IMG/VR virus record: IMGVR_UViG_3300037742_000080
Span: 1 to 58,327 of that record
From: a virus
Taxonomy: Duplodnaviria; Caudoviricetes
Direction: 5' to 3' (one strand)
Length of the DNA stretch: 58,327 nucleotides
How positions within the stretch are numbered: the stretch's first letter is position 1; each line of letters opens with the position of its first letter. The notes below the pieces were generated by a model. It was not told the DNA's origin, made no database searches, and saw only the letters and a list, made by a program, of their open reading frames with translations. This document shows positions 55,690 through 56,050 of this stretch, piece after piece. Position numbers and translations under genes: made by a program.

Positions 55690-55715
55690 CAACAAAGCCC
55701 GCACGGGGCGGGCTT
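55690..55715 (-). terminator. Terminator of the tRNA unit
   Basis: aagcccgc-cccgt-gcgggctttgtt. Confidence 0.7.
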
Positions 55716-55803
55716 CGAGGGACAGGACGATGTCAGCGGGCCGCCAGGCGCCACACATGCTCGCGGCCGATGCCCACTCCGTGGGCGTCGCGCCGGTCTG
55801 CAT

Positions 55804-55879
55804 TGGTTGCGAGGGCGGGACTCGAACCCGCGACCTCCGGAGTATGAACCCGGCGAGCTTCCAGCTGCTCTACCTCGCG
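55804..55879 (-). tRNA. Initiator tRNA-fMet (CAT), 76 nt with encoded CCA
   Basis: CGCGAGG...CCTCGCA-ACCA with C1xA72 mismatch; CAT anticodon; GGTTCGAGTCC T-arm. Confidence 0.93.
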
Positions 55880-55884
55880 TCAAT

Positions 55885-55921
55885 TGGTGCAGGGCCCTCA
55901 GGTGAGCCCGTCGGGCCCTGC
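55885..55921 (-). ncRNA. tRNA-like minihelix ending in ACCA
   Basis: GCAGGGCCC-15 nt-GGGCCCTGC-ACCA, 5 nt upstream of the tRNA. Confidence 0.55.
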
Positions 55922-55922
55922 G

Positions 55923-55967
55923 TGGTGGGACGTAGACCTTGCTGCAAAGGTATAGGGCCTTGGCCCC
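55923..55967 (-). ncRNA. Second tRNA-like element ending in ACCA
   Basis: GGGGC...GTCCC-ACCA enclosing hairpin ACCTT-TGCAGC-AAGGT. Confidence 0.4.
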
Positions 55968-56019
55968 AGCCAGTTCGCCTAGCGCTGTCTCACCGGTCAG
56001 CGTGTCGGAAGGTGTTGTG

Positions 56020-56050
56020 ATGATACGCGGGAAGCTCGGCCACGCGCACC
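56020..56050 (-). promoter_or_regulatory. Putative promoter of the tRNA unit GGTGCGCG-N17-TATCAT
   Basis: Recurrent motif preceded by ACGAT. Confidence 0.55.

Follow-up and report, generated by a model that had tools for sequence, protein, structure and literature searches.

A predicted modular non-coding RNA operon behind the terminase gene of a Bradleyvirinae-type phage, with a CCA-ended minihelix and a pseudoknotted RNA

The gap behind terL and its signals

What is encoded on the minus strand in the gap bounded by the stop of the terminase large subunit gene (56056) and the next gene, at 55608? The first-pass annotation had placed there a stand-alone RNA unit in which two CCA-terminated, tRNA-like mini-RNAs stand in tandem before a tRNA-fMet. 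The window, by which we mean the whole stretch of DNA analysed, is a virus record of 58,327 nt, complete, bounded by direct terminal repeats and with 66% G+C. Its TerL shares 97% identity with the TerL of Pseudomonas phage PaMx74 and 77-93% with those of Bradleyvirinae phages of Janthinobacterium, Xanthomonas, Stenotrophomonas and Variovorax; on these identities we regard it as a Bradleyvirinae-type phage. The terL gene (56056..57519, minus strand; PHROG 2, Pfam Terminase_6N) is the upstream neighbor and lies outside the RNA operon, and the downstream gene (phrog_23866; 55189..55608, minus strand) has its own promoter-like site near 55683-55634. The comparison set comprised 17 annotated phage loci and 80 IMG/VR loci, and the region behind terL was inspected in the 28 closest.

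The letters and minus-strand coordinates reported for the mini-RNAs proved correct when the sequence was re-checked. Element 1 (55967-55923) opens with GGGGC and closes with GTCCC-ACCA; after 1 nt, element 2 (55921-55885) forms a perfect 9-bp stem followed by ACCA, and 5 nt further on lies a tRNA-Met(CAT) (55879-55804). As the first-pass annotation had expected of tRNA scanners, the minihelix formed by element 2 is missed: ARAGORN and Rfam report 55879-55804 alone, neither calls a tmRNA in the window, and Rfam at E<=5 over positions 54000-58327 gives the tRNA as the sole match in the gap. The picture of a stand-alone non-coding operon also held up, with its own promoter box, a terminator-like hairpin and one CCA-ended minihelix with a covarying stem. 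Of the 64 ORFs compared with Pfam, 40 matched no family, and none gave a hit to Ro60, reverse transcriptase, RNA ligase, CCA-adding enzyme, aminoacyl transferase or integrase.

A promoter and a terminator had been proposed as the ends of the unit. A GATGG box (56053-56049) and a -10 hexamer TATCAT (56025-56020) form a promoter-like element at 56020..56053 on the minus strand, defined from 35 aligned upstream regions, and a GATGG box with a YATCAT-type hexamer recurs across these 35 loci upstream of motif A, the pseudoknotted RNA described below. The predicted +1 is 56013. Motif A probably starts there, because its first paired base lies 7 nt past the hexamer (6-7 nt among the loci) and is an A in 30 of the 35. 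At the other end a GC-rich 9-bp hairpin (55716-55694) with a weak U-tract makes up a terminator-like element at 55690..55716, also on the minus strand; 98% of its cells are paired in seven sequences, and two pairs covary. Both ends are thus conserved, but a sigma-70 promoter and terminator scanner called neither of them.

The tRNA (55804..55879, minus strand; Rfam RF00005, 60 bits) is an initiator-type tRNA-Met(CAU) with an encoded CCA, and the CAU anticodon, C1xA72 and A11-U24 are all present. A hallmark of initiator tRNA-fMet is a run of three G-C pairs where the anticodon stem meets its loop; here the anticodon stem has two G-C pairs and G31.U39, and position 38 is C. In Xoo-sp2 and other relatives the standard G-C pair and A38 occupy these places. 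Changes such as G31.U39 and C38 could in principle evade fMet-cutting VapC toxins. The counterpart of this tRNA is missing from the PaMx74 RefSeq annotation. Between tRNA and terminator lies motif C (55718..55803, minus strand), a variable hairpin standing on four base pairs, behind which come 25 invariant nucleotides (55756-55732) that may resemble the 5' end of 5S rRNA. It is common to seven loci and is less well supported than the other motifs, with two of the four base pairs changed on both sides, in one lineage.

The minihelix and the pseudoknotted RNA

The successive stem-plus-ACCA ends had been held unlikely to arise by chance. For element 2 this stands, 1 of 200 shuffles folding as well (z -4.0); element 1 folds no better than shuffles (z -0.46), and 93 of the 478 ACCA sites in the window have a stem of at least five pairs at the same distance. 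Watson-Crick hairpins of at least 8 bp directly before ACCA are expected 0.3 times in a genome of this composition, and two were observed. Since such rarity alone is weak, the decisive evidence for element 2 is its conservation in relatives.

Element 2, here motif B, is a 37-nt CCA-ended minihelix on the minus strand (55885..55921; model R2), with a 9-bp stem beginning at G1-C72, a 14-15-nt top and A73-CCA. Its alignment (A3) has 16 rows, 15 of them distinct; five of the 21 rows of the parent alignment (A2) were excluded, namely a duplicate and four whose excised segments were offset or carried indels. Seven of the nine stem pairs have changed on both sides and 97.8% of cells are paired, against 36-58% in slid controls, and none of 500 shuffles reached the covariation score, a kind of test that kinship among sequences can beat. 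Pair types are many, with four at one position; the stem is fixed in length and free in sequence, pairs 2-8 varying freely. C-1, G1-C72 and ACC do not vary among the 16 rows, and all 15 distinct ones have G1-C72. The 18 distinct variants measure 36-38 nt and end in ACCA (16), ACCG (one) or CCCA (one), the search pattern having required CC, and none has G3:U70. Covariation across related phages, which had been named as a check, is therefore found in the stem of element 2, but the stem of element 1 is not conserved. By these comparisons element 2 is a conserved minihelix under selection.

The top of the minihelix measures 14 nt in most variants and 15 nt in those of the window and PaMx74, the common pattern being G, GG-YYMA-CC, GA. 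Nine base pairs, tandem G.A and one further pair would stack to 12 with a 7-nt loop, and the other register to 14 with a tetraloop. No UUCRA and no canonical T-loop or TpsiC consensus was found in the top, and as a single hairpin without the D, anticodon and TpsiC arms of a cloverleaf the minihelix is not a tRNA (RF00005). The top may resemble RNA-phage coat operators and RsmA sites; GGA is absent from the loop subtype of the window. The B-type loop and the variable region of the neighboring tRNA both carry GGAGGTC, and this overlap is a possible origin of the loop.

A loop-only search of viral contigs returned 112 matches, 16 of them with at least eight of nine flanking pairs. Thirteen of the 16 end in NCCA in register; the remaining three belong to the matches whose ninth base is not G, and model R2 gives them no score. 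The pattern of loop plus non-G base gave 67 matches and no minihelix, and looser patterns gave 62 matches, of which 11 have the stem, all in this phage group or in contig G003. The same loop, on new stems, occurs in G003 and G004, two contigs without motif A by model R1. G003 is a 70-kb phage with the minihelix between tRNA-Pro and tRNA-Asn, and in G004 a tail gene lies on one side of the minihelix and a tail-chaperone gene on the other. In G003 a multi-stem RNA without CCA (L137:605-700) lies between tRNA-Pro and the minihelix. In all BLAST-found records the minihelix is unannotated, save for an overlapping 'hypothetical protein' in Mallos.

Element 1 (55923..55967, minus strand) is not a unit. 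It consists of P3, the 3' strand of P1 and the pseudoknot strand of motif A (55924..56013, minus strand; model R1), a 90-nt three-way-junction RNA that starts 46 nt upstream of it, has homologues of 82-127 nt and has no Rfam match. Of the two tandem CCA-ended mini-RNAs one thus remains, and the other is the 3' half of a larger pseudoknotted RNA. In its true context the stem of element 1 has a pairing probability of 0.01, and an ACCA is kept at its place in eight of 33 homologous loci; on the proposed structure element 1 was a misreading, its ACCA being the 3' strand of the pseudoknot. Motif A is built from P1 (5 bp; 56013-56009/55940-55936), P2a (2 bp; 56008-56007/55979-55978), P2b (5 bp; 56002-55998/55987-55983) with loop L2 (55997-55988), and a variable P3 (55977-55945) followed by J3/1, which reads CAGC (CAGY across relatives). 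P2a and P2b are separated by an internal loop, GAM/UA, that rests on a wobble pair, A.C or G.U, and the pseudoknot pairs 55994-55988 of L2 with 55930-55924 of the 3' tail. Two extra hairpins had been reported in the gap; that at 56002-55983 is real but is arm P2b, and that at 55786-55772 is the tip of motif C.

Across 32 sequences 16 of the 21 pairs of motif A have changed on both sides, none of 500 shuffles reached the covariation score, and eight columns are invariant and nine near-invariant. P1 is paired in 100% of cells, with all five pairs covarying. The pseudoknot columns are 79.5% paired, a figure lowered by misaligned short-loop members, and the pseudoknot was therefore tested free of alignment: among 15 distinct loops the mean pairing score was 6.2 with the own tail and 4.2 with other tails, a difference reached in 0 of 100,000 permutations. 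The tail reads ACCA only when L2 begins with GGU (8 of 33 loci) and otherwise changes with the loop; the pseudoknot of the window contains one A.C mismatch. Folding of single sequences with the tail does not return the motif A fold. In nested folding with the tail included, the L2-tail pairing beats P1/P2, the probability of P1 exceeds 0.5 in one of 35 loci, and the fold of the window lies 6.3 kcal/mol above the minimum, the pseudoknot not being counted. With the tail removed, P1 exceeds 0.5 in 28 of 35, and in 31 of 35 the energy of the core is no more than 3 kcal/mol above the minimum. The loss of P1/P2 would be expected of a program that cannot form crossing helices, and the model also allows a two-state RNA. 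Searches of Rfam 15 gave no match for motifs A and C (window 54000-58327 at E<=5, 20 loci at gathering thresholds, 18 loci at E<=1). By their covariation, both the minihelix and motif A appear structured and under selection.

Distribution and modularity among relatives

Of 35 loci, 27 have an element resembling an acceptor stem in the slot immediately after motif A: a minihelix in 18, a tRNA-like cloverleaf in five, a 13-bp hairpin with AACCA in two, and tRNA-fMet 9 nt away in two. In the other eight no tRNA-like element follows motif A. The minihelix lies 1-3 nt past the pseudoknot in its 18 loci and further on, behind odd cloverleafs, in four; it is absent from 13. A CCA-less cloverleaf precedes it in four cases and a CCA-less hairpin in G003. 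In two loci (L002 and L013) the tRNA follows motif A alone, without a minihelix. In other members the same slot is occupied by tRNA-Ile, a permuted tmRNA, CAU cloverleafs that lack TpsiC, and no fewer than four further motifs absent from the annotation.

The permuted two-piece tmRNA occurs in QDWS359 and two uncultured relatives (L005:1838-2132, L031:3907-4155, L236:1-204) and is unannotated in the QDWS359 record. Cloverleafs with a CAU loop lie directly behind motif A in L007:1411-1575, L008:1691-1778, L026:3379-3465, L027 and L030; their D arm is long, they lack the TpsiC consensus and encode no CCA, and ARAGORN and Rfam missed them. In FMYAK-P1 (L096:286-325) and DoCa10 (L097:292-330) the place of the minihelix is taken by the different, 13-bp hairpin with AACCA, and behind it comes a long hairpin domain that contains several ACCA. 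At least four further conserved, unannotated RNA-like motifs are shuffled among the operons, with no Rfam match in the loci scanned; these are found at L003:1538, L020:3386, L024:3377, L025:927 and L211:929, at L016:3765, L028:3505 and L029:3486, at L005:1621, L089-L091 and L095-L097, and at L005:1562, L031:3744 and L236, respectively.

Model R1 finds motif A in A1432, where it is displaced by a tail-fibre gene, and gave no convincing motif A in PaMx28, phiH1, ZQG1 and G001, the remainder of five related genomes tested. In G001, whose TerL is 99% identical, an HNH endonuclease gene (L009:3313-3816) stands in place of the entire RNA operon and of the gene after it. On gene content, the operon is dispensable and modular. 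A motif A pattern gave 15 matches in viral contigs (14 in this phage group, one by chance), 59 in metagenomes (six scoring at least 59 bits with R1, all of the same operon, the next best 27 bits), 28 in GTDB (one real) and two short chance matches in plasmids; the pattern is blind to GAA-type and short-loop variants, and these scans do not establish absence elsewhere. The GTDB contig with motif A (L277, JBBADT010000013.1) is 54,626 nt long, equal to the phage contig of L026, and is filed in an Advenella MAG, which may be a host hint or a binning artefact.

Possible roles of the two RNAs

We infer that the unit is transcribed, cut by RNase P into discrete products and functional. Parts of the stretch occur in 20 sequencing runs; in the four aligned with it the matches are contigs that span both genes and non-coding sequence, a pattern that speaks to neither transcription nor RNA ends. 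A phage-type promoter just after terL would drive a short non-coding transcript of motif A, minihelix, tRNA-fMet, motif C and terminator. The minihelix would act as a natural copy of the top half of a tRNA (G1-C72, about 12-14 stacked pairs, RCCA), and host RNase P would cut it at G1. Such a cut would fix the 3' end of motif A precisely, immediately behind the pseudoknot, and with both ends buried in helices motif A could survive as a stable small RNA, as with mascRNA and MALAT1. A second RNase P cut, at the tRNA 5 nt on, together with 3' trimming would leave a discrete 37-nt CCA-ended minihelix, whose selected role would be chiefly punctuation. It may well be that RNase P cuts at the minihelix in this mascRNA-like manner, freeing motif A with a fixed 3' end and leaving the CCA minihelix, and we rank this reading first because the minihelix has RNase P anchors and 27 of 35 loci fill the slot with an acceptor-stem-like element. 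According to the accessible part of the source, bacterial RNase P cleaves acceptor-plus-T-arm hairpins through RCCA pairing, a G+1/C+72 stack and a 12-bp ruler (PMC11143913). The minihelix has G+1/C+72 and the RCC(A) end, all 13 loop-found minihelices end in NCCA, and the position of the G004 minihelix between tail and tail-chaperone genes suggests a place where a cut in mRNA would make sense. Against punctuation, eight of the 35 motif A loci lack a tRNA-like element behind it, the minihelix is kept even where a tRNA within about 5 nt could supply the cut, as it does alone in L002 and L013, and the invariant 14-nt loop common to phages outside the group seems to exceed what punctuation needs. 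Nor is the minihelix top a canonical T-loop, and in the text available from the same source E. coli RNase P RNA cleaves tetraloop-capped hairpins with lower efficiency and at a displaced position (PMC11143913).

Both its persistence next to a tRNA and its invariant loop point to a role of the minihelix itself. It could be a decoy: excised and uncharged, it would soak up toxins that read acceptor stem and CCA (toxSAS pyrophosphokinases, MenT-type nucleotidyltransferases) and so spare tRNAs, and having no anticodon it offers nothing for anticodon nucleases to cut. We consider this plausible and compatible with the RNase P route, yet clearly less probable than punctuation; with the tRNA 5 nt downstream, a free CCA minihelix would be released in either case. 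The toxSAS enzyme FaRel2, as described in the portion of the paper available, efficiently modifies a synthetic minihelix and reads G1-C72, C2-G71, G4-C69 and Pu5-Py68 (PMC11559606). All four pairs and the CCA are present in the window copy, the operon is dispensable (absent from four of five related genomes tested, one with 99% TerL identity), and the minihelix would be co-transcribed, judging from operon order, with tRNAs and in relatives with the permuted tmRNA, a translation-rescue cargo. However, the four determinants are complete in only four of 18 distinct variants, one variant ends in ACCG and another in CCCA, and a modified decoy is spent once per turnover, so that high levels would be needed. 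FaRel2 itself, as far as the accessible text states, comes from Firmicutes and Actinobacteria, which are not the hosts of these phages (PMC11559606). A natural free 36-37-nt CCA minihelix serving as decoy inside a modular operon of undescribed structured RNAs would amount to an RNA-only counter-defence kit, a tentative idea.

Less probable again, and on the whole unlikely, is that the elements work in cis or as binding sites, with motif A a 5' leader that stabilizes the transcript or modifies RNA polymerase, for which put-like antitermination is an analogy, and the minihelix top a protein-binding hairpin. Motif A stands first in the operon, at the predicted +1 in all 35 loci, the U-tract of the terminator is weak, and the invariant minihelix loop forms a top with a bulged A, a short stem and a tetraloop ending in A. 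But the next gene has its own promoter-like site, a plain hairpin would suffice to protect a 5' end, a binding site needs no encoded NCCA, and no RNA-binding partner was found among the 64 ORFs scanned. Aminoacylation, with the minihelix as amino-acid donor or synthetase sink, had also been offered and appears improbable: A73-CCA and G1-C72 resemble several acceptor stems, but the variable pairs 2-8, the lack of G3:U70 in all 18 variants, the missing anticodon and elbow, and the absence of an aminoacyl-transferase-like family among the scanned ORFs speak against it. The earlier alternative of collapsed tRNA genes, or of an integration-site remnant, is hardly credible. Both elements adjoin the tRNA, and the B-type loop has the GGAGGTC of a tRNA variable region; yet compensatory changes occur in seven of nine minihelix and 16 of 21 motif A pairs, with covariation scores that none of 500 shuffles attained, the slot contains an intact tRNA in no relative, and neither a T-arm consensus nor, among the 64 ORFs, an integrase was found.

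Under RNase P punctuation motif A would most likely act in trans through a host protein, an accessory, host-dependent benefit, with a cis leader role next. In our judgement a trans-acting, protein-binding RNA is the leading candidate, though held with reserve; a cis leader or antiterminator is possible but less probable; a ribozyme is unlikely, and so, about equally, is any other role. A pRNA-like packaging RNA, which every phage with this motor should need, was considered and rejected, since four of five related genomes, including one of 99% TerL identity and 97% completeness, gave no convincing R1 match. For a bacterial Y RNA (YrlA) there is neither a Ro60/TROVE Pfam family in the 64 ORFs nor an Rfam match. 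As a tRNA-Ala acceptor or a tmRNA tRNA-like domain the minihelix would need G3:U70 and a TpsiC arm, and it has neither.

Some known RNAs come close. MALAT1 mascRNA and NEAT1 menRNA are eukaryotic cloverleafs of about 60 nt behind a triple helix; like them, the minihelix is a tRNA mimic directly behind a self-protected 3' end, with a precise RNase P cut predicted here, but it belongs to a bacterial virus, is a bare hairpin with encoded CCA and follows a pseudoknot. Class 1 xrRNAs are compact junction RNAs closed by a loop-to-3'-tail pseudoknot, as is motif A, and HDV-like theta ribozymes are structured RNAs likewise tied to phage tRNA genes. Motif A differs from the former in that its pseudoknot uses the loop of the 5' arm, and from the latter in that its helix order is not the HDV double pseudoknot and it lies 5' of the tRNA; neither gave an Rfam match. 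Small phage RNAs processed by RNase P include the T4 band C/D RNAs, and some lie in tRNA operons. The phi80 M3 and P1/P7 C4 RNAs are also phage non-coding RNAs handled by host tRNA-processing enzymes, RNase P among them (PMC11143913, accessible part). From M3, C4 and the band C/D RNAs the present ones differ in having no sequence or Rfam match and in forming a module of 36-37 nt that is passed among operons and here has a pseudoknotted RNA as its partner. In the available text on phage T5, its tRNAs against retron and PARIS defences are similarly accessory, patchy tRNA-operon cargo of lytic phages (PMC11559606); they replace a lost tRNA in translation, whereas the minihelix cannot decode and could only be a sink.

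Minihelices are widely used as laboratory models and have been proposed as the ancestor of tRNA. The synthetic acceptor-stem/T-arm constructs (AT1, pMini, toxSAS substrates) are alike in size (35 vs 36-37 nt), G1-C72, discriminator plus CCA and single-hairpin form, as given in the parts of the two papers available (PMC11143913, PMC11559606). Unlike these laboratory constructs, the phage minihelix is genome-encoded and covarying and has a fixed, non-TpsiC top. Our literature search, to which most subscription papers were out of reach, found no report of a free-standing natural minihelix and no description of these RNAs. A catalogue of 10,006 viral candidate RNAs gave no match in four supplementary files, alignment archives and PDFs aside, and could hold these motifs (PMC10690425). 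In the text available, the AXL1 genome paper detected no tRNA (PMC9206674) and that of A1432 one (PMC11236537), and for the terms searched non-coding RNA is unmentioned in the accessible parts of both and of PMC11946847.

By sequence comparison, then, the locus is a modular phage operon of non-coding RNAs that had escaped annotation. Two of its RNA motifs are new and well supported, and it is a variation on phage tRNA operons to which further RNAs of the RNase P type have been added; both motifs are probably excised by the host enzyme that matures tRNAs. Since the covariation-supported minihelix occurs in cultured phages (PaMx74, Xoo-sp2, DLP4, AXL1, A1432), processing, charging and decoy activity can be tested together. 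The same locus yields a new pseudoknotted RNA fold and several unannotated RNAs in genomes published with no or one tRNA. The decoy, if true, would be a new RNA-based defeat of toxSAS/MenT-type phage defence, with a bearing on phage therapy against Pseudomonas, Stenotrophomonas and Xanthomonas.

Elsewhere in the window, a second 9-bp hairpin followed by ACCA (12842-12872, plus strand) lies between a CATAAT hexamer and an ATG and hides the ribosome-binding site; it is probably a translational control hairpin or a chance occurrence. Weaker copies of the GATGG/-10 arrangement precede other genes of the window (55683-55634, 55229-55180 and 47886-47837 on the minus strand, 45431-45480 on the plus strand), and their recurrence suggests a phage-specific promoter class.
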